The position numbers were made by a program, and so were the translations under genes. Shown in pieces: positions 12,452 through 62,997 of a DNA stretch of 64,000 bases. The DNA lies in IMG/VR virus record IMGVR_UViG_3300037067_011302, positions 120,220-184,219 of that record. One strand, 5' to 3'. A model generated the notes under the pieces. It was not told the origin of the DNA. It ran no database searches and worked only from the letters and a program-made list of their open reading frames with translations. Position 1 is the stretch's first letter. The number at the start of each line of letters is the position of its first letter. This stretch comes from a virus. Its lineage: Duplodnaviria; Caudoviricetes.

Positions 12452-13603
12452 ATGTTTCGCGCGGTCAAAACCAAGTTGGATAATCTTTTGGAATCTGAGA
12501 TTCAGTCTCTTAGAGAAACCCAGCGTATTGCAACGAACGTGTACAATGACTATGTCAACTACGCGTTTGAGCACCAAAAGTGCTCAAGGTTCGACCTACA
12601 GAAGGCGTTGTACTATGTTGAACGGGAGAAGTTTCCTGAATTTCATTCTTCACTCGTTCAATCGATCATCGTTGAAGTAATGAGTGCACTCAAGGCGGTC
12701 AAGTACAAGTTTCGCCCACACCGGAGTGAGAACGCTTCTCTCACGTATGACGTGAGGATGTTCAAATTACGAGGTGATCAACTTTCGCTCAGCACGACAG
12801 GAAAGCGCTTCAGGACGATCATTCAGTTTCCTGACTGGTGTAAAGACATCATTAAGGAAGGAAAATCAAAGACAATTCAACTTATTTGGGACAGGAAAAA
12901 TCAGCGGTTTGATGCTCGGATCGTGTTCAAACTTCCCGATGTTGAGAAGAAGGACGAAGGTAAGGTCATCGGAATTGACCAAGGATTGGTCAATTTGGCA
13001 GTCACTTCAGAAGGTGAATTTTTTGGTGCGAAGAAAACAAGGAGGAATCAAAGGAAGTTTTTATTTTTGAGGAGAAAGCTCTCGGCAAAAGGCACTCGTT
13101 CCGCAAAGAGATTGTTGAAAAATCTCAGTGGAAAAGAGAAGCGGTTTAACCGAGACGTAAATCACTGCATTGCAAAGAAGCTTGCGTCACGTAGTGACGT
13201 AAAGGCATACGTCATTGAGGATCTCAAGGGAATCAGGAACCAAAAATGTGGGAAAAAGCTTAACAAACTTCTTTCCTCATGGACGTTCTGTCAACTTGAA
13301 TCTTTCCTCACGTACAAGTGCCTTGCGAATGGAATCTCCGTTCAAAAAGTGAGTCCAGCGTACACCTCACAGAAGTGTTCAAATTGTGGACGGATCCATA
13401 AAGAGAATCGTAATCAAGGACGTTACGTTTGTGATAAGTGTGGGTTCAAAATTCATGCAGATGTAAACGCAGCGATCAACATACGAGATAAGTGGGTCTC
13501 AAAATCATCCTATGGTTTAGCCCATAGGCAGGGTACATTCGATTGCCCGAACGGGAATAACAGAAATGTCAAGTCCCAAGATCATCACATAGGTAATGGT
13601 TAA
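12452..13603 (+). CDS. tnpB: RNA-guided endonuclease TnpB (family 1 here)
   Basis: RuvC IGIDQG / VIEDL / HADVNAA, YTSQKCSNCG..CDKCG zinc ribbon. D-E-D triad intact. Confidence 0.92.
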   Translation: MFRAVKTKLDNLLESEIQSLRETQRIATNVYNDYVNYAFEHQKCSRFDLQKALYYVEREKFPEFHSSLVQSIIVEVMSALKAVKYKFRPHRSENASLTYDVRMFKLRGDQLSLSTTGKRFRTIIQFPDWCKDIIKEGKSKTIQLIWDRKNQRFDARIVFKLPDVEKKDEGKVIGIDQGLVNLAVTSEGEFFGAKKTRRNQRKFLFLRRKLSAKGTRSAKRLLKNLSGKEKRFNRDVNHCIAKKLASRSDVKAYVIEDLKGIRNQKCGKKLNKLLSSWTFCQLESFLTYKCLANGISVQKVSPAYTSQKCSNCGRIHKENRNQGRYVCDKCGFKIHADVNAAINIRDKWVSKSSYGLAHRQGTFDCPNGNNRNVKSQDHHIGNG

Positions 13604-13625
13604 GTCGAAATGACGTACGATTATG
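13457..13625 (+). ncRNA. omegaRNA (reRNA) of TnpB family 1; scaffold ends ...TTAAGTCGA at 13608, guide starts AATGACGTACGATTATG
   Basis: Overlaps the tnpB 3' end. Boundary is set by loss of similarity to the orphan copy at 62660-62814. Confidence 0.65.
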
Positions 13626-14740
13626 CGATCATCGGTGCCGGTTTGAGCGGAGCAACATTCGCTGAACGTGCAGTCAAGAACGGAAAGAGGGTGTTGGTCA
13701 TCGACAAACGTGAACACGTTGCTGGCAATTGCTACACCAGTCGCGGATTCATGGGAAGCATGATCAACGTTCACCAGTACGGACCGCACATCTTTCACAC
13801 GTCTGACAAGCAAATTTGGGAATACGTAAATCACTTTGCGTTGTTCAACGGCTACGTTCATAGTGGTCACGCGATCGTCAACGGCGAACACTGGTCATTG
13901 CCGATAAACATGGCAACGATGAACAAATTGTGGGGTGTGAAGGATCCTGATGAAGCAATGGCACGAGTGGCGTCATCACGAATTGTTCCAAAACCGGGCA
14001 GCGATGACTGTGAATCATGGATGCTGAGCGTTGTTGGGCGTGAACTCTATGAACTCCTCTTCAAGGAGTACACGACCAAGCAATGGGGAAAACATCCTAG
14101 TGAACTTCCTTCAAGCATCTTCAAGCGATTGCCCATTAGGTTCACGTGGAACGATCGTTATTACAATGATACGTTTCAGGGAATTCCCGTTCACGGATAT
14201 ACGTCAATGATCGAGAAGATGTTGCAGGGAGCGTGCGTCGTTCGCGGGTGCGATTATGCGTATGAGAAGAACTTCATCAACAAGATTGCAAAGCACGTTG
14301 TGTACACCGGACCAATTGACGCTTTCTTTGAACACTCGTGTGGCAAATTAGAGTATCGTTCACTACATTTTGAACACGATCTAGTGAAAAAACCCGACTT
14401 TCAAGGTACTTCCGTCATTAACTACCCGAGCAAAGACGTCAAATACACTAGAATCATTGAACACGTACACTTCGACGATCGAACGAGTCTACCATCAGTT
14501 GATGACAACAACACGGTCATTACGTACGAATACCCATGCATGTATCAGGCTGCCGAAGAACCGTTCTATCCCGTGTGCACGGCAGACAACCTGTTGAAAC
14601 TCGAAAAATATCAGAGGAAAGCAAGTGAGATTCGAGATAGGTACACGTTCTTGGGTCGCCTAGGGACGTTCCAATATCTTGACATGGATGACGCAATTTA
14701 CTTTGCACTCAAGGCGGCCACTCGTTTAGGAATGCAGTGA
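13610..14740 (+). CDS. glf: UDP-galactopyranose mutase
   Basis: IIGAGLSG, AGNCYT, HQYGPHIFHTS, YTTKQWG, YQ/FQGIP..GYT, LEYRSL, GRLGTFQYLDMD. Confidence 0.95.
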   Translation: MTYDYAIIGAGLSGATFAERAVKNGKRVLVIDKREHVAGNCYTSRGFMGSMINVHQYGPHIFHTSDKQIWEYVNHFALFNGYVHSGHAIVNGEHWSLPINMATMNKLWGVKDPDEAMARVASSRIVPKPGSDDCESWMLSVVGRELYELLFKEYTTKQWGKHPSELPSSIFKRLPIRFTWNDRYYNDTFQGIPVHGYTSMIEKMLQGACVVRGCDYAYEKNFINKIAKHVVYTGPIDAFFEHSCGKLEYRSLHFEHDLVKKPDFQGTSVINYPSKDVKYTRIIEHVHFDDRTSLPSVDDNNTVITYEYPCMYQAAEEPFYPVCTADNLLKLEKYQRKASEIRDRYTFLGRLGTFQYLDMDDAIYFALKAATRLGMQ

Positions 14741-14913
14741 AATTCATAAAGGAACACACAAAGGAGGAGATCATCGACGCGATCAATGACCTGTTGGCAC
14801 AGCGTGCGAAGTACGTGGCAATGGTCGAGGCAGGTCATCCAGAGGTGTTGGTGGCCATCCAGTTCATCGACAATGTCCTACGAATGACCGGTGTGCCCAA
14901 GAAGGATGGTTAA
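14737..14913 (+). CDS. Small hypothetical protein (58 aa, MKFIKEHTKEEIIDAIND...)
   Basis: GTG overlaps the glf TGA. Below the 60-aa cut-off of the ORF track. Confidence 0.6.
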   Translation: MKFIKEHTKEEIIDAINDLLAQRAKYVAMVEAGHPEVLVAIQFIDNVLRMTGVPKKDG

Positions 14914-14955
14914 TCATTGACATTCGTCGGCGGCACGTGCACAATCGTGGGTCAC

Positions 14956-14990
14956 TTGAACGAGCATTGACTTTGGTGTAAATTTGTTCA
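14956..14990 (+). promoter_or_regulatory. sigma70-type promoter, leaderless (TTGAAC-N17-TAAATT-N6-ATG)
   Basis: Canonical spacing directly before ATG 14991. Confidence 0.55.
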
Positions 14991-15797: not shown

Positions 15798-15800
15798 GCG

Positions 15801-24828: not shown

Positions 24829-26673
24829 ATGACTCTCAAGCGTGATGATCTCAAGAGCGTGCGACAACGTAGGTACGTCGCAAAGGACTTCGATGGACTA
24901 CGTGCTCTGTTGTTGGAATACGTTCGCCTTTACTATCCCGACAGGATCAAAGATTTTTCTGAGACGTCTGTCGGTGGAATGTTTCTTGAGCTCGCCGCGT
25001 ATGTAGGCGACAATCTATCGTTTTACCTCGATCACCAGTACGGTGAGCTCAATCCTACGACCGCCGTCGAGACGACGAACATCGAACGTGCACTGAAGAT
25101 TGCCGGCGTGCCGATCGTCGGAGCGGCTCCGGCACTCGTTTCTGTGATGTGCTACGTTCAGGTGCCCGCAGAAAAGGTTTCAAACGTTCAGGGACCGATG
25201 ACGTCAGCAATTCCAACAGCACTGGCTGGTTCAATATTTTCGGCTGACAATGGCACGGTGTTCATTCTGTTGGAGGACATTGACTTCAATAAGAAACGTT
25301 CCGACGGAAAGTACGTTGCCGACGTACGTGTAAGTCAAAAGACGACAACGGGAGTTCCGACATCGTACGTCATGGCGTTGGCTGGACTGTGCATTTCTGG
25401 TGCTGAGACGACGGAAAGCGTCACATTGTCGGGTCCATTTGAGGCATTCAAGAAGATCACGCTTTCATACGCAAATGTATCGGAAATCGTTAGTGTGTAC
25501 GACGATCTAGGAAACACATACTATCAGGTCAATTCACTGTCTCACGATGTCGTCTACAAGAATGTCTTGAACACCTCAAAGGACACCGACCTCGTGAAGG
25601 ATGTCATCAAGATCATTCCTGCGCCGTATAGGTTCATTACGTCAGTCGACCTAGCATCAAGGAGGACGACATTGACGATGGGAGGAGGCAGCGCTGACAC
25701 GTTGGAAGACGATGTAATTCCTGATCCTGCCGACTTTGCAATATCGTTCCCATACAGCAAGACATTCTCAAGGATCTCAATAGATCCGAACAAACTGTTG
25801 CAGACGAAGACGCTCGGCGTCTGTGCAACTGACACAACGTTGTCGATCACGTACAGGTACGGTGGAGGACTCAGCCACAGCGTTCCACCCAACACGATTC
25901 GAACCGTCAAATCGTTGAAGATGCAATTTCCAAACAGTCCACAACCGGCAACTGCATCACAGGTTCGTACGAGCCTTGAGGTCTCAAATCCGCGTGAGGC
26001 GGCAGGAAGCGACGATGCTCCGACCGCGGACGAGTTGAAGATGCTGATTCCTCAATATAGGAGCGCTCAGGAACGAATCGTTTCACGTGAAGATCTGCTT
26101 GCACGAGTGTACACATTGCCATCAAACTTTGGGCGTGTGTTTAGGGCAGCTGTCAGGTCGAATCCAAACAATCCATTGGCACTACAGTTGTTCATCATCT
26201 CAAGGAACGCCGACAGTCAATTGATCGTGTCTCCTGACACGCTCAAGCAGAACCTGAGGACGTACCTAAATCCGTACAGATCAATTTCAGATGCCATTGA
26301 TGTCATTGATGCCAGAGTCATCAACGTAAAGTTAGACTTCGACGTCCTGTTGGATCCGTCGTTGAACAAGAGCATCGTCATGCAGACGATCCTCAAGAAG
26401 TTGCAGAAGACGATGGACATCAAGAACTTCCAAATCGATCAACCGATCGTGATTGAAGACGTGAGAGACGTCATCTTCTCAACGCCCGGTGTCGTGTCGG
26501 TGAATGGAATAAAGTTCGACAGTGTGAACGGCATTGTCGGCACTCGAACGTATAGTACAGAAGTGTTTGACGTTGCTGCAAATACAAACAAAGGAATCAT
26601 ATTCCCAACGGGAGGCGCAATCTTTGAGTGTCGCTATCCAGAATATGACATCACCGGAAAGGTAACTGGTTAA
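24829..26673 (+). CDS. Baseplate wedge protein (T4 gp6 / baseplate J-like)
   Basis: KDFDGLRALL..Y...YYP...DFSETSVGGMFLELAAYVGD.LSFYLD, YRYGGG, AQERIVSRED. Confidence 0.88.
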   Translation: MTLKRDDLKSVRQRRYVAKDFDGLRALLLEYVRLYYPDRIKDFSETSVGGMFLELAAYVGDNLSFYLDHQYGELNPTTAVETTNIERALKIAGVPIVGAAPALVSVMCYVQVPAEKVSNVQGPMTSAIPTALAGSIFSADNGTVFILLEDIDFNKKRSDGKYVADVRVSQKTTTGVPTSYVMALAGLCISGAETTESVTLSGPFEAFKKITLSYANVSEIVSVYDDLGNTYYQVNSLSHDVVYKNVLNTSKDTDLVKDVIKIIPAPYRFITSVDLASRRTTLTMGGGSADTLEDDVIPDPADFAISFPYSKTFSRISIDPNKLLQTKTLGVCATDTTLSITYRYGGGLSHSVPPNTIRTVKSLKMQFPNSPQPATASQVRTSLEVSNPREAAGSDDAPTADELKMLIPQYRSAQERIVSREDLLARVYTLPSNFGRVFRAAVRSNPNNPLALQLFIISRNADSQLIVSPDTLKQNLRTYLNPYRSISDAIDVIDARVINVKLDFDVLLDPSLNKSIVMQTILKKLQKTMDIKNFQIDQPIVIEDVRDVIFSTPGVVSVNGIKFDSVNGIVGTRTYSTEVFDVAANTNKGIIFPTGGAIFECRYPEYDITGKVTG

Positions 26674-28190: not shown

Positions 28191-28219
28191 GGTATTATCT
28201 CTCTTGCTATGGAGTAATT

Positions 28220-29419
28220 GTGTCTCATTTATCACACAAAATCAGGCTATATCCGAACAAACAGGTCTTGAACTATTTCGTTCAAGCCGTGGGTACGGCG
28301 CGATTTTCCTGGAATTGGGCACTTGCTAAGTGGCAGGAACTCTATAAAAAAGGCGTCAAGGATCTTTCAGGATACACACTCGATAAGGAATTCAATAGGA
28401 TCAAAAAGGAAGAATTTCCTTGGACGAAAGAAATAGCTGCGCATATTACTGATGTGTCGATTCAAAATCTTGGAAATGCGTTCAAGAGGTTCTTTAATAA
28501 GAAATCGGGATATCCAAAATTCAAGAAGAGAGGTGTTTCAAAGGAATCATTCTATGTTAGGTTGAACAATTCGAAAGTCGTAGGTAAGTTTCTAAGGATT
28601 CCACGTCTCAAGTCATCAATTCGAATGGCTGAAGAAGTGAGGTTTCCTGGAAAGATCAAAAGTGCGGTGATCTCGAAGGGTTCCAACGGAAATTGGTACG
28701 CATCCTTTGGGATCGAGTTGGATGAGTCATACGTCTATCCACACAAGTGTGAGAGCCAAGCACGAGTTGGTGTGGACCTCGGAATCAAGACGCTCGCCGT
28801 CTGTTCCAACGGAACAAGGTTTGAGAACCCGAAGTGTTACAGGACACGTGAGAGGAAGATCAGGTCGTTGAGCCAATCTCTCTGCCGAAAGAAGAGAGGT
28901 TCTTCGAACCGGATGAAGGCACGGATTAAGTTAGCATGTGCTCACGTGAGGATCAGGCGGATTAGATTGGACGCAATTCATAAGATGACCTCTATGATCG
29001 TGAAAAGGTTCAAAGTGATCTGCATCGAGGATCTCAACGTTAAAGGCATGCTCAAGAACCACTGTCTTGCGAAGTCAATTTCTGACGCATCATTTTCTGA
29101 GATTCGGCGTCAATTGGTGTACAAGTCGAAGTTGAGTGGGTCAAAGTTGATCATCGTGAATAGATTTTTCCCATCGAGCAAGTTGTGTTCCGATTGCGGA
29201 CACAAGATGGAAGAACTTGATCTCTCGATCCGTGAATGGGTGTGTCCTGAATGTGGTGTTGTTCACGATCGTGACCTGAACGCTGCACAAAATTTGGAAA
29301 AGTGGGTCGCCCCGGGACATGAGGAGACCAAAAACGCCCGTGGAGATGGTGTTAGACGAGCGAGGGTTCGCAAGAACCCACGTGAGCAGCTGTCTGTGAA
29401 GCAGGAAGTCACATTGTGA
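28220..29419 (+). CDS. tnpB: RNA-guided endonuclease TnpB (IS605 OrfB type, family 2 here)
   Basis: HKIRLYPN HTH, VGVDLGIK, CIEDLN, FFPSSKLCSDCG..CPECG..HDRDLNAA. Confidence 0.95.
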   Translation: MSHLSHKIRLYPNKQVLNYFVQAVGTARFSWNWALAKWQELYKKGVKDLSGYTLDKEFNRIKKEEFPWTKEIAAHITDVSIQNLGNAFKRFFNKKSGYPKFKKRGVSKESFYVRLNNSKVVGKFLRIPRLKSSIRMAEEVRFPGKIKSAVISKGSNGNWYASFGIELDESYVYPHKCESQARVGVDLGIKTLAVCSNGTRFENPKCYRTRERKIRSLSQSLCRKKRGSSNRMKARIKLACAHVRIRRIRLDAIHKMTSMIVKRFKVICIEDLNVKGMLKNHCLAKSISDASFSEIRRQLVYKSKLSGSKLIIVNRFFPSSKLCSDCGHKMEELDLSIREWVCPECGVVHDRDLNAAQNLEKWVAPGHEETKNARGDGVRRARVRKNPREQLSVKQEVTL

Positions 29420-29445
29420 CATATCAGAGGATCAGATGACGACGA
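29305..29445 (+). ncRNA. omegaRNA of TnpB family 2; scaffold ends near TCA 29426, guide (G)AGGATCAGATGACGACG
   Basis: Hairpins GGGTTC-GCAA-GAACCC and GTCAC-ATT-GTGAC. Conserved with the copies at 34155 and 59152. Confidence 0.7.
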
Positions 29446-32400
29446 GGCACACAGTCACATCACCGTTCATTCCTTCATTCTTGATCGCTGCTGCCGAAGG
29501 AACGAGGCCTGTGCAGTTATCGTTCAATGACGTCAGCGACACGAATATGTTGAGCACGTCGTCATTCATGTACGATGCAGCCGATGCACCGATGAAGTCA
29601 ACGCAGCAGCTCAACGTTGACTGGGCGCACTTCGAGAATCACACGTTCTTCATGTCGGCCGAGGCAAAGGTCAACCTAGCGTTCGACCAAATCATCAACG
29701 GATTTCCGTTCGATGGTTCTAGAAAGGACGTTGAAGAATTCTTTGAAAGGTTGACTGGGTACGACAAGTGGGTATTCAACGAATTTCCGAAGCACCGAGG
29801 ACAACTGCGATTTTCGGGAGGTCCTGTCGGTTCTTACGTTGTCGTCGAGGACGTTGCCGGCGGACTCTATCCTGAACTGGCAAAGAACAAGACGGGTGAG
29901 TCAATCCTGAATCCCAAGGACGGTGCATCGCTCAGTGTAGAGATGCAGTTGTTCCTTCCAAAGGTCACGAACGATTGTCAGGTCGTGTGCCAAAAATTGA
30001 GCGGCAGCACGCAGGGATTTTCGCTGTACGTTTCAGCGAGTTCACTTACGTCAAGTGCCGAGGCAATGTTCAGCGTCGTCTCGGGCACCACGTGTCTCAC
30101 CGTGCCCTTCACGCTCGACAAGGGGTTGTATAACCACCTGTGCGTGTCGTTGAATCGAGAGGGCGGCCTGCACTATCTGGAAGCATTCCAGGGTGCGGTG
30201 CTCAGTTCCTCGACACAGGCCCGTGCCGTGATCGGCGACATGGACATCGATGATTCACAGTTCATCATAGGCTCAGGGACAACGCTTTCGTTGGATGGAA
30301 CCACGTTCACTCCGAAACAGACGTTGTCGGGTACGATCGATGAGCTACGAGTGTTCCACTCAACACGTACCGAATCGCAGCAGGCGTTGTACGCTCAGAA
30401 GGCGCTGTATTCGACGTCCGACCTCAAGCTCTACTACAGGTTCAATGAGCCACCGATGTTGGCGACTTCAGGCAGCACGATCGATTCAATCGTCATTGAT
30501 AGCAGCGGAAATGCACTTCACTCGTATGTCACTAACTTCACAGGAAGCTTGAGGGAAAATTCAGCGCTCGATGCACTCAATCCGATGGTGTACGAAAAGG
30601 ATGAAACGATTCCTGTCCTATTCCCAAAGTACGCTGGCGTCGTTGATTTCAACGTTGAATTGTTGGCAAGCGCGTCCGAATACGACAGAGCAAATCCAAA
30701 CCTCATCACGAGGCTCGTTCCTGAACACTACCTGCTCGAGGGCGCAACGTTTGACGGATTTGATGAACCTGAGTGCAACGGCAATGATGCGTACTCCGGT
30801 GAAGGAATTCCCGGTGAGGGAAAGATCGGCAACGTGCAGATCATGTTGTCGTTGCTCTACGTGTACGCAAGATTTTTCGACGAATTGAAGTTGTTCGTCG
30901 ATGCGTTCAGCACGATTGGGTACGTTGACTACGACACGAACCTAAGCATGCCGAACAACTTCCTTCGTGACGTGATTTCGAGCTATGGTTTTGAGCTGCC
31001 TCCGTTGTTCAACGATTCGACGATCGAACAGTACATACGTGCCGAGAACATCGATCCGATGATCAGCACCGGTACGACGCCGTTGAAGAGCGTACAGCAC
31101 GAATTGTTGCGACGTGTGTTGATCAACCTGCCGGACGTCATTCGTTCAAAGGGAACGCAGCACAGCATCAAGGCATTCCTACGAACGATCGGCATCGATC
31201 CTGACAACAGCATGAGGATCAGGGAGTACGGCGGCCCGACGTCGCGGCACCTGACGTTCTCTCGAGAAAAGAAACGTGACGTCATGACGATGGTCGAATT
31301 TTCAACGTCATCGTACTTTGACACCGGAATATTGTCCGGCTCTCGCGTTGAGGTGGGATATCCCGAAGTCAGCGGCACGATGGTCATGAAGGACATTTTT
31401 GCGCCGCACGGCGTCAGCGACAGTGTTGATGACGGAATGTTCACGTCAGGATCGTGGACAATCGAGGCAACGTATGCATACAAGAAGACGCACGTTTCCT
31501 CGATGACGAATGCGACGCAGAGCCTCGTGAGGATGAACCTCATCGGGTGCAACACCTACAATGAGCCCGTGGGGTCAGGAATTGATCCACTTCTCGTTGC
31601 GAACTTGCTGGCGATTTCATCGTCAGTCGATCCCAGGATCTCCCTGTACATCAAGCCGACGATCTTGAATCGACCGATTGACGCTCCACTCGTGTTGACG
31701 TTGGACATTCCGACGGGAACGTTCTTTGACGGTGACGTGTGGCAGGTGTCGTTCGGGTGCCAACGAAATGATGAAATCGATTCATTGACATCATCGTCGT
31801 ACTTCTTACGCGTGGCATGTCAGAACAACGGAGAGATCTGGCACAGTCAGTCGACGTCGTCATACTACGATGATTCTGTGCAACACCTTGCAGGCAATCC
31901 CGACTATCCTAACGTTCTACGTAGCAAGTCGCTCGTCACTAGTCCTAGCCACGACCCTCACTTGAACATGGACGGCGTCGGAATCACATTGTCGATGGGA
32001 ACAAATCAATCGATCGCGTCAGGCCCAGGGGGTGACTATTTCTTGTTGAATACGACGGACGTTAATGTTCCTCCTGAAGCTCGAGCGACCGACTTCAATG
32101 GCATGGCGTCGAACCTTAGGTTCTGGTCGAAGGCACTGACGACAGACGAGTGGAAAGAACACGTGCTGAACTACAACTCACGCGGCGTTCATGATCCATT
32201 GGTGAACTTTAACTTTGAGCACGTTCGCACCGGTTCGTTCGAACGTCTAAGGCTTGAGACATTGTGTAAACAGGACACCCGTCGAGCAATTGCAACGGCA
32301 AGCCTAGGAATCCTGGGAACGATTGAATTTCTTGACTTCAGTCAGAACGGCATTCATTGTTCTGGTAGCGGTTTTCCAATCGAAAAAGACTGCGTGAAGC

Positions 32401-32990: not shown

Positions 32991-33071
32991 CGAAGCTAAA
33001 TAGCAATGTGCTAAATTGAACACATCGACAATTGATTCGTCGAATTGCATCATTTGTTGTAGGATGTAATC

Positions 33072-34268
33072 GTGCCTCACCTGACCCATAAAATCAGATT
33101 GTATCCAAACAAACAGGCCTTGAGTTACTTCGCTCAAGCAGCGGGTACGGCTCGATTTTCTTGGAACTGGGCACTCGCCAAGTGGCAGGAACTTTATAAA
33201 CAGGGCATCAAGGGTCTCTCAGGGTACACACTTGACAAGGAATTCAATAGGATCAAGAAGGATGAATTTCCTTGGACGAGTGAAATGTCTTCACAAGTCA
33301 CTCAGGTATCGATCCAAAATCTTGGAAAGGCGTTCAAGGGATTTTTCAATGGAAAAGGGTATCCAAAGTTCAAGAAGAGAGGTGCATCGAAAGAATCGTT
33401 TTATGTTGGACTGAATAATTCAAAAGTTGTAGGTAAATTCTTAAGGATCCCACGACTCAAGTCGTCAATTCTGATGGCGGAAGAAGTGAGGTTTTCTGGG
33501 AAAATTAAAAATGCAGTGATCTCGAAGGGTTCTGACGGAAACTGGTACGCTTCGTTCGGGATCGAGCTGGACGAAAGTTACGTCTATCCACATAAGTGTG
33601 AGAGCCAAGCACGAGTCGGTGTGGACCTTGGAATCAAGACGTTAGCAGTCTGTTCCGATGGTACGAGATTCGAGAACCCAAAGAGTTACAGGACACGTGA
33701 GAGGAAGATCAAGTCGTTGAGCCAATCTCTTTGTAGAAAGAAAAGAGGTTCTTCGAATCGGATGAAGGCACGGATCAAGTTAGCATGTGCTCATGCAAGA
33801 ATCAGGCGGATCAGGTTGGACGCGATTCACAAGATGACAACGTCAATCGTGAAGAGGTTCAGAGTGATCTGCATCGAAGATCTCAACGTGAAAGGCATGT
33901 TAAAGAACCACTGCCTTGCGAAGTCAGTTTCAGATGCATCATTCTCTGAGATTCGACGTCAGTTGGCGTACAAATCGAAACTGAGTGGGTCAGAGTTGAA
34001 CATTGTGAATAGGTTCTTCCCATCGAGCAAATTGTGTTCAGATTGTGGGCACAAGATGGAAGAACTTGATCTTTCGATTCGTGAGTGGGATTGTCCTGAG
34101 TGTGGCGCGGTCCATGACAGGGACCTAAACGCCGCACAAAATTTAGAAAAGTGGGTCGCCTTGGGGCACAGGGAGACCGAAAACGCCTGTGGAGATGGTA
34201 CAAGACGTGTAAAGGTTCGCAAGAACCCATCAACGCAACTATTTACGAAGCAGGAAGTCACACTGTGA
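33072..34268 (+). CDS. tnpB: RNA-guided endonuclease TnpB (family 2, close paralog of 28220..29419)
   Basis: Same motifs with an intact D-E-D triad. TAGGAT-N6-GTG leaderless promoter. Confidence 0.95.
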   Translation: MPHLTHKIRLYPNKQALSYFAQAAGTARFSWNWALAKWQELYKQGIKGLSGYTLDKEFNRIKKDEFPWTSEMSSQVTQVSIQNLGKAFKGFFNGKGYPKFKKRGASKESFYVGLNNSKVVGKFLRIPRLKSSILMAEEVRFSGKIKNAVISKGSDGNWYASFGIELDESYVYPHKCESQARVGVDLGIKTLAVCSDGTRFENPKSYRTRERKIKSLSQSLCRKKRGSSNRMKARIKLACAHARIRRIRLDAIHKMTTSIVKRFRVICIEDLNVKGMLKNHCLAKSVSDASFSEIRRQLAYKSKLSGSELNIVNRFFPSSKLCSDCGHKMEELDLSIREWDCPECGAVHDRDLNAAQNLEKWVALGHRETENACGDGTRRVKVRKNPSTQLFTKQEVTL

Positions 34269-34294
34269 TGTGTCAAGGATAGACGTACATGGCG
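34155..34294 (+). ncRNA. omegaRNA of TnpB family 2; scaffold ends near TCA 34275, guide (A)GGATAGACGTACATGG
   Basis: GGTTC-GCAA-GAACC and GTCAC-ACT-GTGAT hairpins. Confidence 0.7.
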
Positions 34295-36127
34295 ACAGAA
34301 CAATTTTCAAACGCGGCAACGACGACGCTGGCTTCAGGTATTTCTTCTGTCGCGACGACGCTCACCGTGTCGTCTGCAACGAAGTTTCCAACCGTCGGAC
34401 AGTTCAGGTTGTTGATTGACGATGAGATCATGCTCGTCACGGGCGTGTCCGGCACGACGTTCACCGTCGTCCGTGCATCCGAGGGAACGACGAACGTCAT
34501 ACACTCCGCTGGTACTGTGGTGATCCATCCACTCACTGCAGGTGCGATGCTTGCATTTCAAGCAGACACACTGTCGAGCGTGTTCAGCGCGTCGTTGTCA
34601 GGATCGAGCGTCGTGTGCGCTGCGGCTGGCGTGACGATCAACGGTCCGAGCACATTCATCACCGGAAGCACATTGTTGGGGCTCACCGGTTCAACGGTGA
34701 CGCTTACGGGCAAATCGTCAATCAACGGAACGAACGTTTGCCTGACTGGAAGCAATCTCATTGGATTGTCAGGATCAACATTGTCTGCAACTGGATCATT
34801 AATGTCTGTCGACTACTCGAGGACATTCATAACTGGTAGTGCTTATCTTGGTCTAAAGTGCAATGCAACATCGTATACCGAGATAACACCAATGACAACT
34901 TGGATTCAATCGCCAGTGGCGAGCATTCAAGGAAGTACAGCATTTAATGCCTATGCTACAACAAATACAATTCTTGGATATACGAATACATTCATCACCG
35001 GAAGCATATTTTTGGGTCTCACTGGTTCATCGGTGTTGATCGCAGGTAAGACGTCAATCGATGGCACAAACGTCTGCCTGACAGGTAGTAACCTCGTCGG
35101 ACTGTCCGGTTCGTCAATTCGTGTCAATAGTGACAACACAATCATCAATGGTTCGACAACGATCGATGGCACAAGAACGTTCGTCACCGGTTCAACGTTG
35201 TTGGGTCTAAAGGGAACGACGATTGCGTTGGCTGGCAACACGACAATCGATGGAACGAATTCATATCTGACAGGTAGCAACCTCATCGGGTTGTCGGGTT
35301 CATCGATTACATTGTCCAGTGATAACATCACGTTGAGCGGAACGCTGACGACAATCGGTGTAGACGGTGTTGCATCTACACTACAATTGGGTCCGACAGG
35401 TGCTGGTGCCGTCGTGACACGAAAATTGACCACTGGCACTGGTGACAACATACACATTCAGGCAACAACAGGTGGATCATTTCAAATTAATGCAAATGGA
35501 AATGCGTTTGGATGGCCTGATGGCGTGTATGGCAACGGCACCGTCACGTATATCGGCGCAAATAATGTATGGGGAATTCAGCTTTCAAATGTTCTTTTTC
35601 AAACGTATTTGCCTCTTCGAATTAAATCATCGACAGATTCTCTTCCGTTGACAGGCGATAGCATTCTATTCGGTTCAGATGATGCTTCAAATGGTTTAAC
35701 AGGCGTGACTGTAAAGATTCGTGCCGCCAATCTGACGTTGTCAAGTTCAGTTCCAAATAGCATTGCGATTGAAACTGGTAAGGGCCCAACGATCGGTGGC
35801 ACGGGTTCTCTGAATGCCGGTGGAGGAGCACAACGAGTCAATTGGAGCGATGTTGGCGTTCAACTCACCGGAAGCCTCGTACAGATCACCGGTTCCAACA
35901 TTGGTCTATACGGCGACACGATCTTGATGCGTGGGCCCGATTCAAACAATGCGGCGTTCCATGCACAACCTCAGAGTTGGAACTCAGGAAAGGGAACATT
36001 GTTCCTTGGAGATTGTACGGTCGTTCCGGTGGCGGCACCGGTCTCAGGCGTCTACCTATACGTTGAGAGCGGGAGCCTGAAGGCGATGTCTCCGTCCGGA
36101 TACGTTGCAACGCTGTGTCCTGCATGA
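34289..36127 (+). CDS. Tail fibre-like protein with internal TGS/SGS repeats
   Basis: N-terminal TTTLASGI..FP..EIMLVT..FTVVRA module. Repeated FITGSxxLGLTGS / CLTGSNLIGLSGS units. Confidence 0.75.
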   Translation: MATEQFSNAATTTLASGISSVATTLTVSSATKFPTVGQFRLLIDDEIMLVTGVSGTTFTVVRASEGTTNVIHSAGTVVIHPLTAGAMLAFQADTLSSVFSASLSGSSVVCAAAGVTINGPSTFITGSTLLGLTGSTVTLTGKSSINGTNVCLTGSNLIGLSGSTLSATGSLMSVDYSRTFITGSAYLGLKCNATSYTEITPMTTWIQSPVASIQGSTAFNAYATTNTILGYTNTFITGSIFLGLTGSSVLIAGKTSIDGTNVCLTGSNLVGLSGSSIRVNSDNTIINGSTTIDGTRTFVTGSTLLGLKGTTIALAGNTTIDGTNSYLTGSNLIGLSGSSITLSSDNITLSGTLTTIGVDGVASTLQLGPTGAGAVVTRKLTTGTGDNIHIQATTGGSFQINANGNAFGWPDGVYGNGTVTYIGANNVWGIQLSNVLFQTYLPLRIKSSTDSLPLTGDSILFGSDDASNGLTGVTVKIRAANLTLSSSVPNSIAIETGKGPTIGGTGSLNAGGGAQRVNWSDVGVQLTGSLVQITGSNIGLYGDTILMRGPDSNNAAFHAQPQSWNSGKGTLFLGDCTVVPVAAPVSGVYLYVESGSLKAMSPSGYVATLCPA

Positions 36128-36136
36128 GGAATAACA

Positions 36137-37581: not shown

Positions 37582-37588
37582 GGACTAA

Positions 37589-38683: not shown

Positions 38684-38686
38684 GCG

Positions 38687-39364
38687 TCAAACGTCATCGA
38701 TGTCTGTCGTGTATTCGAAATCGACGTCACTCTCATCGGGATTGTAGACACCCGCTCCAGGAAGCCAGTAATCCCTCAAGAATTTTCTTATGTTTTCCTT
38801 GGGACCCTCGACAGAAAAAATTGGATTACCATGTAGATCGGCCTTGCCGTCGACAAACTCGCAGTCAAGTTTGAGCGGCGCGCAAACCGTTTTAGCCCAT
38901 GACAAATTGTCAGAGCATGATGCCTTGTAAATTTTTTCAACGCTCGCATCGACAACGTCATCTTTCATGCCAACGTCATCATATTGTTTCTGCGAAAATG
39001 AACTGCACTTTCTTTCAGGACACTCGACATCGTTCATCCCAATATACGCATTTTTGTTGCCACACTTTGGACAGACGGCTTCATCAACGCCGAAGTTGGT
39101 ACGCCGCCAACCCATCATTCCTCGAGCAGCCTTTCCTTTACGTGACAGGCTTCCCAACACCTCACGCGCGATCGTTTGAGTCGTTGGTGTGCCACTGTCG
39201 AGCATGAAGTCGGCAACATCGTGCACTGTCTTTGCACCGGCTGACAGTGCCTGCAGAGCTAGGTCTTCACGTTCCTTGTCTTCCCAAGAATCTCCACGTG
39301 ATTCACGCACGACTTGTTTGATCAATCCACGTAGTTGGCCAGGTGACAATTTCATAGTTTTCAT
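38687..39364 (-). CDS. Putative internal virion protein with leader helix and zinc ribbon
   Basis: MKTMKLSPGQLRGLIKQVVRES, then DEAVCPKCGNKNAYIGMNDVEC. Confidence 0.7.
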   Translation of the reverse strand: MKTMKLSPGQLRGLIKQVVRESRGDSWEDKEREDLALQALSAGAKTVHDVADFMLDSGTPTTQTIAREVLGSLSRKGKAARGMMGWRRTNFGVDEAVCPKCGNKNAYIGMNDVECPERKCSSFSQKQYDDVGMKDDVVDASVEKIYKASCSDNLSWAKTVCAPLKLDCEFVDGKADLHGNPIFSVEGPKENIRKFLRDYWLPGAGVYNPDESDVDFEYTTDIDDV

Positions 39365-58072: not shown

Positions 58073-58074
58073 TC

Positions 58075-58365: not shown

Positions 58366-58368
58366 AAC

Positions 58369-58961: not shown

Positions 58962-59134
58962 GGTTTGATCCTACCACGGACTGGGCGGCACGTGCACTGT
59001 GAACGCTCAAATGGCGGTGCACGTTCCACACGAAATTTCATCATCGTAGAACGATATTGTAGACACGGCGCCGTCTTCAAACATGATGACGTAGTCGCAC
59101 GTTTGCACTGTGTGCCTTGCCCCCAACATTACTA

Positions 59135-59273
59135 CATTCGTGTCGTACTTCTGACATGTCACTTACGTAACTTCCTGCTTCATCGACAATTGCTCGCGTG
59201 GGTTCTTGCGAACCCTCGCTCGTCTTACACCATCTCCACAGGCGTTTTCGGTCTCCCTGTGCCCCAAGGCGAC
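59135..59273 (-). ncRNA. Orphan omegaRNA of TnpB family 2; guide (G)AAGTACGACACGAATG
   Basis: ~120 nt closely matching 29305-29426 and 34155-34275, diverging right after ...GTGACATGTCA. Confidence 0.75.
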
Positions 59274-59430
59274 ACAAATTTTTTTGTGGCATTTGTTCCT
59301 TGTTGTGAAGGATCGATCCTCAAGATTGCTTGGTTTTCGCACTCTCAGAGATCAATTAATTCACCCAGAACAACGCCGAAAGTTCATATTATTTTTCCTT
59401 TCCTGATTGTTTGATATTACAACACTCTCT
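59274..59430 (-). pseudogene. tnpB: Decayed, internally deleted tnpB fragment
   Basis: Translates to SVVIS.../TFGVVLGELIDL*ECENQAILRIDP, versus SAVIS...SFGIELDESYVYPHKCESQARVGVDL, then jumps to the C-terminal NA motif. Confidence 0.55.
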
Positions 59431-59445
59431 CGCGCTGTTCATCGT

Positions 59446-59508
59446 TGGAGCCGAATGAGGGAATTGAACCCACAACAGCCTGTTTACAGGACAGGTGCTC
59501 TACCGTTG
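59446..59508 (-). tRNA. 5'-truncated tRNA-Thr(UGU) remnant with CCA
   Basis: CAACGGTAGAGC (D arm), CCTGT-CCTGTAA-ACAGG (anticodon arm), GTGGG-TTCAATT-CCCTC (T arm), ATTCGGC-T-CCA. The 5' acceptor strand is absent. Confidence 0.7.
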
Positions 59509-59568
59509 GCCTCCATAGTGACACTCCAGTGAAAAATACTAGGTCACCGACGTTATATTTCGCCATGT

Positions 59569-59823
59569 TCAGTCCGTGCACAGCACCTTGATCGTGCTTC
59601 CGTTCAAAACACAATCACTTTCGTCATCGTAGACAACGTAAGTACTAATGGTGCCATCGTTCCTCAACACTTCATAGATCGCGTATACCGGGCATAGTCG
59701 GCGACGCATCAAGATCATTGCCGTGATAAATCTTTGTTCTGTCCGACACCAGATCGAGTGTTCGATCGATAGCAACGTCCCAGCGGGAAGTTCAAGTCGG
59801 TTCACCGGTGTTCTTTCGACCAC
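59569..59823 (-). CDS. Small SH3/KOW-like paralog
   Basis: LPAGTLLSI...YEVLRNDGTI. Confidence 0.6.
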   Translation of the reverse strand: MVERTPVNRLELPAGTLLSIEHSIWCRTEQRFITAMILMRRRLCPVYAIYEVLRNDGTISTYVVYDDESDCVLNGSTIKVLCTD

Positions 59824-60239
59824 GACTTACGCGGACCGGGAAATCGATCTTTGAAGTCATAGCTGTGAAGCCACTTGTTGAACGACGATCTCATTTTTTT
59901 TGGCGTCACGTCGGTGTCCATCCAATACCCGTTCAATCGATCGTCGTAGATCCTGACGATCTGTCCGTCCGGCATCATGACGTGGAAGTGATCGAGGTTG
60001 CGGACGTCGTGGGGAAATCGAACGATCGCAACGATCGTAACAAGCGTCACGCAATCGTCCTCGACTGCGTTCCAAGAGAACACGCAGTGACTACCGAGGT
60101 GCGCTAAGTGCTTGGTGCTGCAATTGTCTGGCGCGGCGCCCAGCGCCACGAATGAATCATTGACGTTGTATTCGTCGCCGCAAATAAGCGCGCGAGAACG
60201 CACAAGAATTTGGTCACCTACCTTCACCATCAAGTCCAT
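59802..60239 (-). CDS. Paralog family A protein
   Basis: VKVGDQILVRS...IVAIVRFP..NLDHFHVMMPDGQIV..DD..NGYW. Confidence 0.7.
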   Translation of the reverse strand: MDLMVKVGDQILVRSRALICGDEYNVNDSFVALGAAPDNCSTKHLAHLGSHCVFSWNAVEDDCVTLVTIVAIVRFPHDVRNLDHFHVMMPDGQIVRIYDDRLNGYWMDTDVTPKKMRSSFNKWLHSYDFKDRFPGPRKSWSKEHR

Positions 60240-60263
60240 CCTCTCACCGAGTCGGTCGCTCGT

Positions 60264-60695
60264 TCACTCACGTCCATCATAGAACGTCCTTTGACCTGAC
60301 CATCCTTGGACTGTGGCGGCGGCACGTGGGTCACTCGGTGCACTCATCATCGATGTCGCCCTCTCGCTCACCGTGAACGACGTACATACGTACCACAGTT
60401 CGCCGTTCTCCAACAGGACGATCGTCGTGGGAATGGCATCGTGATATTGCTCGAGCTCCTTGTTGAAGTTCACCAGTGCTTTCGACCTCGTCAACAATTT
60501 GCCGACGATCGTCACGAACAATTCACGTGGAATGCCCCTGACACAGTGCGTCGTATTGACGTACTCAACGAGCGCTTCACTTGAGTCGTCGGTGAGGACG
60601 GTCGTCTTTCCGACGGGACGCCAGAGGATTGAGTTCCAAATGATCACGACGCCACCGATCGGCAGCAGATCGTTCAATCGCAGAGCGCTACACAT
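60264..60695 (-). CDS. Paralog family B protein
   Basis: LNDLLPIG..LWRP..VGKLLTR..IPTTIVLLENGELWYV. Likely start MCSALR. Confidence 0.65.
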   Translation of the reverse strand: MCSALRLNDLLPIGGVVIIWNSILWRPVGKTTVLTDDSSEALVEYVNTTHCVRGIPRELFVTIVGKLLTRSKALVNFNKELEQYHDAIPTTIVLLENGELWYVCTSFTVSERATSMMSAPSDPRAAATVQGWSGQRTFYDGRE

Positions 60696-61098
60696 TGATA
60701 ATCTTTCTCGCGTCAAGGCCGTAGTGATACCACTCGAGCAGGGCGTTCGTGTAGTTGGACGTCCTCTTGTCGGATGAACCAACTTCGATCCAAAATCCGT
60801 TCTCGTGATCGTCAAAGACACTGACAATCTGACCGTCTGGCATCATCACGTGGAAATGGTTGAGGTTGTGCGCCTCACTGGGAAACCTGACGATCGCCAT
60901 CACTGTCACTAGTGTAAAGTGATCTTTTGAAGCGTACTTTATGACAGAACGTTCGCCCAACCAATACCAATTGTCGTCTTCGGCGGTGAATTTGAATTTT
61001 TCTGGATCGCGCCACTCGCAGTGACCCCCACAAACCAGTGCTGACGATCGCGCCAAAATTGCGTCACCGACTTTAATTTCCATCACGACCATGCTCAA
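60688..61098 (-). CDS. Paralog family A protein
   Basis: IKVGDAILARS...AIVRFP..NLNHFHVMMPDGQIV..DD..NGFW. Confidence 0.7.
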   Translation of the reverse strand: MSMVVMEIKVGDAILARSSALVCGGHCEWRDPEKFKFTAEDDNWYWLGERSVIKYASKDHFTLVTVMAIVRFPSEAHNLNHFHVMMPDGQIVSVFDDHENGFWIEVGSSDKRTSNYTNALLEWYHYGLDARKIINV

Positions 61099-61101
61099 CG
61101 A

Positions 61102-61377
61102 TCACTCTATAAAAGTGGCATTTAGCACATATGCATCGTAATCGACGTACCACGCAGTGCCGTCTTCAGCAAGCACGATGACTACGTCATGAGTCATCGC
61201 ATGAACAGTCGAATAATGCTCCTCGATGAACACTGAATCATTTCCGATGATGACCACCAATAATTCGTCGTTCATGTCTGACCACGTCTTCTTGAACGAT
61301 CGTACAGTGTTGTTGTTCACTCCGGAACGAGGACGCCACAACAGTCTACAATAAATTTTTGTCAACGAATTCATCAC
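61102..61377 (-). CDS. Paralog family B-like protein
   Basis: LLWRP...IVLAEDGTAWYV. Confidence 0.55.
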   Translation of the reverse strand: MMNSLTKIYCRLLWRPRSGVNNNTVRSFKKTWSDMNDELLVVIIGNDSVFIEEHYSTVHAMTHDVVIVLAEDGTAWYVDYDAYVLNATFIE

Positions 61378-61727
61378 GTGTTCAATGAAGTGTACGTTGA
61401 ATGAACGTACCAAGTCTCGCCGTTGCCCAACAGAACGATCGTCGTCGGGATCACTTGGTGCTTTCTCGCCGCCGCAAAGTTCTCCGGAGTCCACACTCTC
61501 GTCAGCAACTTACCAACGACGACGGCCGGCACGACGTTGATCCGATCATCATCGTCAATTTCCTCTAGGAAGTGCTTCGAAATGTGCTCGAGCAACGTCA
61601 CTCCACCTTCGCCATGCGTCATGACGTAATCGATGGGTCGCCACAAAAACAGTGCATCGATGAACAAGATGGTGCCCAATGGCACCAAGTCATTTAGGTC
61701 ACGTTCACAGTTCATCTTACACATCAT
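61374..61727 (-). CDS. Paralog family B protein
   Basis: ERDLNDLVPLG..LWRP..VGKLLTR..IPTTIVLLGNGETWYV. Confidence 0.7.
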   Translation of the reverse strand: MMCKMNCERDLNDLVPLGTILFIDALFLWRPIDYVMTHGEGGVTLLEHISKHFLEEIDDDDRINVVPAVVVGKLLTRVWTPENFAAARKHQVIPTTIVLLGNGETWYVHSTYTSLNT

Positions 61728-62046
61728 GTACTAAAGTGTGCGTTGTGTGGATCCACCACACTTCACCGTTGCCTAACACGACGACCGTCGTCGGAACGTA
61801 ACTATGTGTGACAACATTTGGGATCGAAATCCGCTTCGTCAGCAGTTTACCGATCACCGTTACACATTGGTCGCCAACAAGGTAGCTCAGGTTGTAATAT
61901 TCCTTGTCGTAATAACTGACGATGATTTCACCTGAGGACTCGCAACGGTTGAACGCCTGCCTTCCGGCACGCCAAAGAGCGTTCGCCCTGATCGATACGA
62001 TGGTACCGATGGGAATCAGGTCGTTCATGTCACGTTCGTGATTCAT
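61717..62046 (-). CDS. Paralog family B protein
   Basis: MNHERDMNDLIPIG..LWRA..IGKLLTK..VPTTVVVLGNGEVWWI. Confidence 0.7.
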   Translation of the reverse strand: MNHERDMNDLIPIGTIVSIRANALWRAGRQAFNRCESSGEIIVSYYDKEYYNLSYLVGDQCVTVIGKLLTKRISIPNVVTHSYVPTTVVVLGNGEVWWIHTTHTLVHDV

Positions 62047-62381
62047 CGCCACACTCGGGCACCCGGCGCGAGCACCTCCGATACACACCACGTCTCTCCG
62101 TCGTCGATCAACAACGACGACGTGGAAATTTCCGCGAATTGTTGTTGATTGAACGGCATCCACATCTTCGTGAAGAACCGACTCATGATTGTTGCGGTGA
62201 CGTCGCCGGTGTACATGTGTCGTTGTAATGATCCATATTCAATTAACAATTTGTTGGGATCGTCCATGAAGCACTTGATTTCATTGGTCACGCCCCACGG
62301 GCGCCACAACGATATTGTGCATACGGTCACCATCGTTCCGACCGGCAATTTCACGATTTCTTCACGTTCCATCGCGACCAT
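62043..62381 (-). CDS. Paralog family B-like protein
   Basis: LPVGTMVTV..LWRP..LLIDDGETWCV. Confidence 0.6.
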   Translation of the reverse strand: MVAMEREEIVKLPVGTMVTVCTISLWRPWGVTNEIKCFMDDPNKLLIEYGSLQRHMYTGDVTATIMSRFFTKMWMPFNQQQFAEISTSSLLIDDGETWCVSEVLAPGARVWR

Positions 62382-62605
62382 CACGACCTCTTCAATGGGT
62401 GCAGCGTCCTCGTCGTGCGCACTTCGCCGCTCTTCGCGCCGCACTGCATGCACTGCGTCGTCCTCATCGCGTGTCCTTTGTCGATCGTGTTCCACCACAC
62501 CTCGAGCGGCACCATCAGCTTCCTGCACGAGCACACGATCGGCGTGTCGTCAACGTCAACGTTCAGATCATCGCACCCGTCACACCACCAACTAGGAACG
62601 TCCAT
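62381..62605 (-). CDS. Small Cys-rich zinc-ribbon protein
   Basis: CDGC..CSC..CMQCG; TGATG coupling to the upstream gene end. Confidence 0.55.
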   Translation of the reverse strand: MDVPSWWCDGCDDLNVDVDDTPIVCSCRKLMVPLEVWWNTIDKGHAMRTTQCMQCGAKSGEVRTTRTLHPLKRS

Positions 62606-62997
62606 CAGAATTCCTCAGCGATTGAATCATTGTGAACATTTCGAAGCCTTCCATCACCGTCGACTTAACCATCACTTGCGTGATGATCTTGGGACTCGGT
62701 GTTCTCACCGTTCCCATGCGGGTGATCGACTACACCCTGCCTGTGGGTTATTAACCCACGGGATGATTTTGAGACCCACCTGTCTCGAATGTTCAATGCC
62801 GCGTTTACGTCGGCAATGTACACCACGACCACGTACGTCGTGCAGTACACGCTGATCCGTGGAACAGACAACACGACGGCTATGCCACGAGCGTGCCATC
62901 GTATGCTGCTTGTTCCAACGATCACGCCGTACGCATCATCGATGAGAATCATGTCACCCGCACGACAATCACCTGTCGACAGGACTTGTTGCCTCAC
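62605..62997 (-). pseudogene. Small SH3-like paralog interrupted by a 150-bp omegaRNA insert
   Basis: ...YVVVVYIAD | insert | (D)GDGRLRNVHNDSIAEEF*. The final TGA overlaps the next ATG. Confidence 0.7.
62640..62814 (-). ncRNA. Orphan omegaRNA of TnpB family 1; guide CGGTGATGGAAGGCTTCG
   Basis: Homologous to 13457-13608 (GTGGGTCTCAAAATCATCC...AGTCCCAAGATCATCAC...ATGGTTAAGTCGA) with covarying hairpins. Confidence 0.75.

Follow-up and report, generated by a model that had tools for sequence, protein, structure and literature searches.

Introduction

The established role of TnpB is that of a nuclease by which its transposon is reinstated, and solo tnpB genes (IS1341-type) are its commonest natural form, so that missing TnpA and missing end hairpins are compatible with TnpB membership. 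Here we analyze TnpB elements and their guide RNAs, the omegaRNAs, in a linear viral contig of 184,219 bp (IMG/VR record IMGVR_UViG_3300037067_011302), with emphasis on its final 64 kb (positions 120,220 to 184,219; the window). CheckV estimates the contig to be 54% complete, and the full genome is probably ~340 kb, that of a jumbo phage. The contig contains seven copies from two families: four tnpB genes (T1 to T4) and three protein-less scaffolds, here called orphans (O1 to O3). T4 (family 2, cut by the contig start) and O3 (family 2) lie outside the window. The sequences favor, on balance, selfish TnpB/omegaRNA homing elements accompanied by non-autonomous derivatives that TnpB could serve in trans.

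Several described systems resemble this arrangement. In ISDra2, the TnpB-bound guide RNA (reRNA) is ~150 nt long (PMC8612924), with a minimal scaffold of 116 nt (PMC10097598). Stand-alone omegaRNAs function in trans with compatible effectors, according to the summary of Altae-Tran et al. (2021) in PMC10691335; as that summary presents them, they comprise a full scaffold without a gene, have their own guides and effector loci in the same genome, and are reported to add targets in trans without nuclease duplication. PATEs, minimal IS200/IS605 elements without a protein, often encode omegaRNAs on which TnpB must act in trans (Meers et al., 10.1101/2023.03.14.532601). TnpA-independent homing into co-resident plasmids and phages has been proposed in a review (PMC13565253), where the evidence cited for TnpA-free homing comes from plasmids only.

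In makeup, the orphans resemble stand-alone omegaRNAs. O1 and O3 have no nuclease gene, a complete scaffold, a guide of their own and a compatible effector in the genome. The same applies to O2, except that its nearest effector in the available sequence, T1, is just 79% identical to its cognate nuclease. In contrast to the stand-alone omegaRNAs as summarized, which lie on a bacterial chromosome, those described here belong to a lytic-type jumbo-phage contig; they derive from elements by deletion or as mosaics and have no left end. Like PATEs, they are non-autonomous and protein-less, consist of a right end with an omegaRNA and would depend on a TnpB encoded elsewhere. PATEs, however, keep left-end and right-end hairpins and are moved by TnpA, whereas O2 retains 2 nt of a left end, O1 and O3 retain none, and the contig has no TnpA; in the strict sense, which demands that both transposon ends be kept, none of the three is a PATE.

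The intact elements parallel the ISDra2 TnpB-reRNA (PMC8612924; PMC10097598; 8h1j, 8exa) in that a scaffold of several stems and ~116–150 nt overlaps the 3' end of the gene and takes its guide from the flank. They have the TnpB hallmark of a structured omegaRNA over the gene's 3' end that terminates at the element boundary, the flank being the predicted guide. Unlike ISDra2, they have no tnpA partner, no recognizable left end and no TTGAT at their junctions, and their scaffold sequence is unrelated. Free-standing homing endonucleases of T-even phages (Seg/Mob, intronless homing) likewise lie between conserved genes and are present or absent among relatives; both they and elements undergoing 'transposon non-restorative homing' (PMC13565253) are expected, as are the elements studied here, to cut the insert-free allele and to be copied by repair. 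The TnpB elements would differ from the T-even enzymes in finding their target by RNA guide and transposon-adjacent motif (TAM) rather than by protein, with self and non-self predicted to be told apart by presence of the insert. RNA-only non-autonomous passengers are possible for TnpB and impossible for protein homing endonuclease genes. The locus is a well-documented phage example of stand-alone guides known from bacteria, not a new kind of system. Homing combined with guides supplied in trans is a reasonable mechanism and not a new one, stand-alone omegaRNAs acting in trans having already been published.

Results

Three intact nucleases and three gene-less scaffolds

The elements of the window are listed below with their evidence in parentheses. 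Coordinates are those of the window unless the contig is named.

12414..13608, plus strand: T1 element, family 1 (Pfam, PDB alignments)
12414-12451, plus strand: T1 left end, short, begins ATCGTCATT (comparison with L092, described below, and with a paralogue of the adjacent endonuclease gene)
12452-13603, plus strand: T1 tnpB, 383 aa (Pfam)
~13456-13608, plus strand: T1 omegaRNA scaffold (family-1 alignment)
13609..13628, plus strand: T1 predicted guide, covering the start of the UDP-galactopyranose mutase gene glf (ATG at 13610)
28205..29427, plus strand: T2 element, family 2, ISDra2-like (Pfam, self-BLAST, PDB alignment)
28220-29419, plus strand: T2 tnpB, 399 aa, GTG start, preceded by a leader of ~15 nt with a TAAT motif
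29303-29427, plus strand: T2 omegaRNA scaffold (scaffold covariation)
29428..29447, plus strand: T2 predicted guide, over the ribosome-binding site and start codon of gene B (scaffold ends ...ATATCAG)
33057..34277, plus strand: T3 element, family 2 (Pfam, self-BLAST, alignment)
33072-34268, plus strand: T3 tnpB, 398 aa
34152-34277, plus strand: T3 omegaRNA scaffold
34278..34297, plus strand: T3 predicted guide, just upstream of and overlapping the start of a tail-fibre-like gene at 34289
59151..59276, minus strand: O1, complete family-2 omegaRNA scaffold, 126 nt (self-BLAST, family-2 covariance model, 138 bits)
62659..62817, minus strand: O2, 159-bp family-1 cassette (self-BLAST, L092 comparison, family-1 structure)

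A preliminary description of the window had reported three intact tnpB genes of two families with a RuvC D-E-D triad, and Pfam and structure alignments agree with it. The Pfam domains OrfB_IS605 and Cas12f1-like_TNB are found in the open reading frames (ORFs) 12452-13603, 28220(28187)-29419 and 33072-34268, and T1 to T3 are intact, with the RuvC D/E/D residues and the zinc finger present. T2 aligns to ISDra2 TnpB (chain 8h1j, E 2e-66), and its zinc finger and catalytic triad are both conserved; an alignment of T2, T3, T4 and two database relatives likewise retains the D/E/D and zinc-finger residues. In T1, the triad is seen in alignments to Cas12f/TnpB PDB chains. T2 and T3 share 83% DNA identity over 1219 nt and belong to family 2; T1 belongs to family 1, a separate branch closer to Cas12f-like TnpBs. 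A search of viral contigs with the T1 protein found no relatives, and a scan of genome contigs found a single one at 35%. A further protein search with T1 yielded P0122, 79% identical, encoded on a metagenome contig of 1685 bp from ENA (L092).

Protein-less scaffolds had been placed at 59152-59273 and 62660-62814. These coordinates are right within a few bases, and both copies, whose strand had been left unstated, lie on the minus strand. In self-BLAST, where the matches that locate the orphans have E values of 1e-24 to 1e-34, 59276 to 59150 (minus) matches T2 29303-29428 at 84% and T3 at 84%, and 62815 to 62660 (minus) matches T1 13456-13608 at 75%. All five window scaffolds had also been said to be followed by different 3' sequences; similarity does stop exactly at the scaffold end in each of them, and the flanks beyond are unrelated. 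Guides were taken as the ~16–20 nt of flank past this end, that is, predicted from where copies stop matching. The start of the T1 guide was set by the end of similarity to O2 and L092 at 13608, and glf was named by Pfam. A search of the contig for a second site of each guide (at most 4 mismatches in 16 nt; guide start a few bases off for T2, T3 and O3) found nothing closer than 3 mismatches.

The family-2 scaffold consists of four helices supported across T2, T3, O1, O3 and three IMG/VR relatives (~56% protein identity). In this alignment 93.7% of the cells are paired and 12 of the 27 pairs are changed on both sides, a result equaled by none of 500 shuffles; slid controls are just 39–47% paired. 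For family 1, we aligned T1 and O2 with three metagenome relatives (L092, L093 and L095). Compensatory changes occur in 20 of its 42 pairs, and O2 aligns across the entire structure. A covariance-model scan for more orphans had been suggested. The family-2 model (R1) has exactly four matches in the whole contig, T2, T3, O1 and the previously unlisted O3, and it scores the two orphans at 132–138 bits (O1 138), as high as T2 and T3. The same model found no orphans in five related viral records. As judged from covariation, both scaffold families have supported structures, which the orphans fully fit.

The tnpB-derived block of all three orphans begins at the RuvC-III codons, ~155–159 nt before the element end, and is roughly the size of a mature omegaRNA. 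A pattern scan with a 19-nt core of the family-1 scaffold gave no matches in viral contigs. Seven matches to this core in metagenomes were rejected as chance hits, having neither flanking similarity nor a tnpB gene.

A filled/empty pair with a candidate TAM

The L092 contig reveals an insertion polymorphism. The 105 nt after its scaffold are 100% identical to positions 1880-1776 of our contig. L092 reads ...TTTTGTAC|element|AACACAATC... (in detail, ...GATTTTGTAC|ATCATCATT...tnpB...GAGTCGAC|AACACAATCATC...), and the phage studied here reads ...ATTTGTAC|AACACAATC... (...AAATTTGTAC|AACACAATCATC...), with no tnpB there. Its empty site consists of TGTAC followed by a 20/20 match to the L092 guide. 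From these junctions, the two sequences are a filled/empty pair of near-identical phages, with TGTAC in the place expected of a TAM. The preliminary description held that guides match the uninterrupted allele of phage genes. This stands for the L092 element, matched to a real empty site; for the window elements no real empty site was retrieved, and such a match is true by construction for any IS605-type insert.

The same motif adjoins O2:

62818..62822, minus strand: TGTAC, candidate TAM of the L092 subfamily, directly 5' of O2 (same motif at L092 and the empty site)
62639..62658, minus strand: O2 predicted guide, continuing the reading frame of a small ORF

A candidate TAM 5' of the left end and target is seen for the L092 subfamily only (the L092 junction, the empty site and O2). 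TGTAC occurs in the contig about once per 1000 nt per strand. From its GGTGTAC|AT junction, O2 consists of AT, 2 nt that match the left end, and the last ~157 nt of a tnpB element, namely RuvC-III codons, tail and complete scaffold. When its 159 bp are removed precisely at the TAM, the frame of the small ORF is kept and its TGA stop overlaps the next ATG; the uninterrupted site so reconstructed is TGTAC + GGTGATGG... (alternatively written TGTAC+GGTGATGGAAGG...). The O2 scaffold is 91–92% identical to L092 and 76% to T1, which indicates that O2 descends from an L092-like element and not from T1; its earlier assignment to family 1 was correct as to family, and the resident T1 is not its source. 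The best reading of O2 is that an L092-like element had integrated at TGTAC and then lost its interior. Another delimitation, by which G(C/T)CGACG microhomology would enclose an O2 cassette of 150 bp, was discarded: the left GCCGACG is tnpB-derived and identical in L092. The TGTAC-based boundary makes the cassette 159 bp long instead of 150 bp.

O1 and O3 are copies of a gene-less unit

O1 is embedded in a larger insert:

59277..59503, minus strand: remainder of the O1 insert, comprising a tRNA-like piece, then a stretch shared with O3, then ~28 nt
59503-59445, minus strand: tRNA-Thr(UGU)-like fragment, 5'-truncated, ends CCA
59131..59150, minus strand: O1 predicted guide, supplied by a small gene that the insert has split (downstream half, QKYDT...)

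In total, a patch of ~350 bp splits this small gene. Its upstream half ends ...LWRPT at 59504, and the rejoined halves align over the junction with a neighboring paralogue at 59757-59611 (E 4e-5). O1 and O3 have a 295-bp unit in common (86% identical) at two loci with different flanks, which argues that a unit without a gene was copied to a second locus after its tnpB had been lost. At O3, the unit begins in the last codons of an intact gene called homing endonuclease by PHROGs (DUF7487); the stretch that the O1 insert shares with O3 corresponds to these final codons, and the last ~28 nt before the O1 scaffold weakly resemble tnpB RuvC-III codons. O3 sits between the PHROG 'homing endonuclease' gene and gp32, and its predicted guide is the leader of the gp32-like gene. 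As part of the homing explanation, we consider it somewhat probable that O1 and O3 were copied from a mosaic whose tnpB had given way, almost in full, to a homing-endonuclease gene.

The substitutions in O3 bear on what is being maintained. At paired positions all of them keep pairing: one is a double change (G-C to A-U) and three are C-to-U wobbles. Substitutions also introduce a stop codon into the former tnpB tail frame. This pattern suggests constraint at the RNA rather than the protein level. O1 itself is a mosaic, its first stem being T3-like and the remainder T2-like, a composition indicating that the copies exchange sequence.

The 120 nt upstream of the O1/O3 scaffold were examined as tnpB decayed to randomness, and this candidate was rejected: global identity is 50–53%, against 48±2 for shuffles. 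Local alignment to tnpB is significant solely over the ~28 nt next to the scaffold. As no tnpB homology is detectable beyond them, 'differential decay' was dropped as strong evidence of selection.

The tRNA-Thr-like fragment (59445-59503) has one T-stem mismatch. An 18-nt piece of its T arm is repeated at contig positions 14063-14080, and 13 nt of it within the O3 unit. The gene that O1 interrupts is one of several small paralogous genes at 59600-62400 (minus) with a common (S/I)LWRP motif.

TnpB elements occupy slots used by homing endonucleases

T2 lies between the conserved baseplate genes A (26673-28190) and B (29436-32990). In relatives, where gene A is 56–62% identical and gene B 58% (L001/L002), A and B are adjacent with no tnpB between them. 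T3 is the left edge of a 6.3-kb lineage-specific block (33072-39364) that is absent from relatives otherwise keeping the gene order. Absence of T2 and T3 from relatives with the same gene order, together with the L092 empty site and its 20/20 target, is the pattern expected of phage homing elements.

The L092 element points to the same niche. At contig positions 984-4516 (L104), a split intein divides a gene for a DnaE-type Pol III alpha subunit into distinct ORFs. Part 1 contains the PHP domain, the first stretch of the polymerase domain and an N-intein (Hom_end_hint), and an endonuclease ORF comes next. Part 2 resumes the profile exactly where part 1 stopped, its first ~53 residues being tentatively read as the C-intein half; then follows T4, truncated where the contig begins. 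In L092 the element occupies a slot between the split-intein halves, just before part 2, and in that slot the phage studied here has the endonuclease ORF. The family-1 relatives L093/L094 lie beside a PolA piece in a phage replication module, close to a split RecA gene.

T1 adjoins the remains of another nuclease gene:

12210..12413, plus strand: stump formed by the N-terminal part of a zinc-finger PD-(D/E)XK-type endonuclease gene, contiguous with the T1 left end

Elsewhere, the contig has an intact paralogue that shares 94.6% identity with this stump. Protein homing endonucleases and inteins of this phage use the same kinds of slot as TnpB elements, and the positions support the view that the latter occupy intergenic slots, immediately ahead of phage genes, in the manner of free-standing homing endonucleases. 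The earlier proposal that the elements act like such enzymes is compatible with their placement and with the L092 filled/empty pair; for the elements of the window themselves no empty allele was retrieved.

Some features near these slots are recorded here as separate observations. Besides T3 and the tail-fibre-like gene, the block 33072-39364 encodes two Laminin_G_3 proteins and has one gene on the reverse strand; possibly a host-range cassette, it would be co-converted should T3 home. In a relative of this phage, a GIY-YIG endonuclease gene lies inside the same baseplate module (L090:1075-1890), indicating that protein homing endonucleases use this module too. In an unrelated phage contig with a family-1 TnpB, a Vsr/DUF559-like endonuclease gene divides the RecA gene into two ORFs (L093:9277-11981). 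Positions 10991-11932 hold a UDP-glucose dehydrogenase-like ORF with N-terminal and central domains and no C-terminal domain. Another 280 nt, apparently non-coding, separate this ORF from the endonuclease stump, after which comes T1; the dehydrogenase-like gene may have been truncated by mobile-element traffic.

No transposase accompanies the elements in the contig

Absence of a transposase from the window had been reported, and the finding extends to the whole 184,219-bp contig, in which neither Y1 TnpA (PF01797) nor serine recombinase (PF00239) was found; the contig represents about half of a genome only, and a family-1 relative (L095/L096, 57% identical) adjoins a divergent Y1 TnpA in a phage-like contig. 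Left ends are just ~15–40 nt long. In the family-2 copies, similarity starts 6–16 nt ahead of the start codon, leaving no room for a left-end hairpin. The left-end remnant in the orphans amounts to 2 nt in O2 and to nothing in O1 and O3.

Discussion

A homing explanation and the points against it

We observe the anatomy of the elements, the structure and conservation of their scaffolds, one filled/empty polymorphism with a TAM and an intact target, and insertions that are absent from relatives. From these sequences we infer scaffold transcription, loading of the orphans by TnpB, DNA cleavage and homing, as follows. The contig would have been colonized by IS200/IS605-derived TnpB-omegaRNA elements of two families, with no transposase gene nearby and almost no left end. 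Each element would be transcribed together with its operon; all seven copies point the same way as the neighboring genes, so that read-through transcripts would include the scaffolds. TnpB would bind the ~125–155-nt scaffold with which its own gene ends, and the next 16–20 nt of flank would act as the guide. During mixed infection, the complex would cut the homologous site of an insert-free related phage, with the TAM beside the target, and recombinational repair would copy the element into the cut site, which amounts to homing without TnpA. What O2, O1 and O3 keep is exactly the part from which a full guide RNA would be made, the guide being taken from the new flank. These RNAs could be loaded in trans by a resident TnpB of the matching family, which could keep or spread the orphans likewise; having no nuclease of their own, they would be maintained or spread only if this happens.

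The preliminary description presented the elements as a candidate trans-acting multi-guide system. They do not make up an organized system: selfish elements, and derivatives that arose from them by deletion, stand side by side with protein homing endonucleases.

Several findings weigh against the homing explanation. No empty alleles were retrieved for the elements of the window, the visible relatives being at most 62% identical in protein, as measured on the conserved baseplate protein, and therefore too distant for guide matching at the nucleotide level. The left junctions of T2, T3, T4 and L003-L006 gave no consensus for a family-2 TAM, and the sequence left of T1 is not TGTAC. P0122, the L092 nuclease, is 79% identical to T1 in protein, and an L092-type nuclease has no copy in the contig, so that service of O2 by T1 is an additional assumption. 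O1 and O3 are at different loci, for which homing alone is insufficient, so that some additional route of movement is required. The orphan scaffolds could also stay similar without any function, through gene conversion by intact copies, and the sharp drop in similarity upstream of the O1/O3 scaffold may be a breakpoint rather than the result of differential selection. A sigma-70 promoter scan around the orphans did not exceed the shuffled expectation, and no dedicated promoter is evident.

Alternative explanations

The main rival sees in the orphans inert debris, left when deletion or endonuclease invasion destroyed TnpB elements, well kept through youth or gene conversion and yielding no functional guide RNA. 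O2 is just ~8–9% diverged from an intact sister element and is possibly recent, and the T3-like/T2-like mosaic of O1 shows exchange between copies. Moreover, O1 and O2 interrupt small ORFs, and O1, with its tRNA fragment and piece of an endonuclease gene, resembles sloppy repair; homology upstream of the O1/O3 scaffold is absent outright instead of graded, and the five related viral records have no orphans. On the other side, three (semi-)independent remnants from two families all keep the entire scaffold to the exact guide junction and all start near the same functional landmark, ~155–159 nt from the end. The O3 stems have a compensatory double substitution and only pairing-preserving changes while the old reading frame is broken, and the O1/O3 unit, already without a gene, was copied to a second locus with its 3' boundary intact. 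We therefore regard inert debris as a possible but rather doubtful account of the orphans.

Two further explanations are less likely. The elements could be ordinary non-autonomous IS605/IS1341 insertions moved by a TnpA of the host or of the missing half of the genome, with their placement incidental. The Y1 TnpA beside the 57%-identical family-1 relative (L095/L096) and the 54% completeness of the contig leave room for this, TAM-precise insertion (TGTAC|AT...) is a product of TnpA-mediated integration, and copies at several loci call for a transposition-like step. Yet the 184 kb at hand contain no Y1 or serine transposase, family-2 copies leave no room for a left-end hairpin, and orphans that lack a left end altogether are ones that TnpA could not move; we hold movement by TnpA in trans to be unlikely. 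Still harder to credit is a domesticated multi-guide weapon that the phage would keep chiefly to destroy co-infecting competitors (marker exclusion) and not so that the elements themselves spread; on this view the arrangement leads towards a CRISPR-like array. Each nuclease family has several guides, which lie at loci that are conserved or essential (the start of a baseplate gene, the gp32 leader and the split site of the polymerase), and T3 borders a lineage-specific tail-fibre block that would be co-converted. But the guides are whatever flanks each insert, dispersed rather than arrayed and with no enrichment beyond insertion sites, and two of the orphans damage small phage genes. The elements are lineage-specific, missing from relatives, and interchange with selfish endonucleases, which is the signature of a parasite and not of a function that the phage conserves.

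The phage offers natural material for testing TnpA-free homing: transposase-less TnpB genes in endonuclease slots, a filled/empty pair and RNA-only derivatives. If the orphans are loaded and direct cutting, they would be an RNA-guided counterpart of non-autonomous homing elements and would show how a single nuclease gains several guides. If they are not loaded, the locus still records the turnover of RNA-guided and protein endonucleases in a phage genome. Speculatively, and with little confidence, one may go further and imagine that TnpB of jumbo phages took over the homing-endonuclease niche, including the split-intein slot of the replicative polymerase, that guide cassettes of ~150 nt became its RNA-only passengers, and that one nuclease polices several loci against co-infecting relatives, a TnpA-independent road to CRISPR-like guide sets.

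Genomic context and further observations

The window encodes sugar-nucleotide enzymes, a baseplate and tail-fibre module and numerous small genes. Megablast of 10 kb of the window against GenBank phages returned no match, and a viral-contig search seeded by the gene adjoining O1 and O2 found no relatives. Rfam at gathering thresholds and ARAGORN found nothing in the window, and ARAGORN found no tRNA gene in the whole 184-kb contig.

A big intergenic region between divergent genes (1833-2302) is rich in palindromic and tandem repeats, among them a 56-bp unit present in 2.5 copies. This unit holds ATATCAGAGGATCAGAT, 17 nt that exactly match the end of the T2 scaffold (7 nt) and the beginning of the T2 guide (10 nt); the match may be a regulatory motif shared with the region upstream of gene B, or a coincidence.

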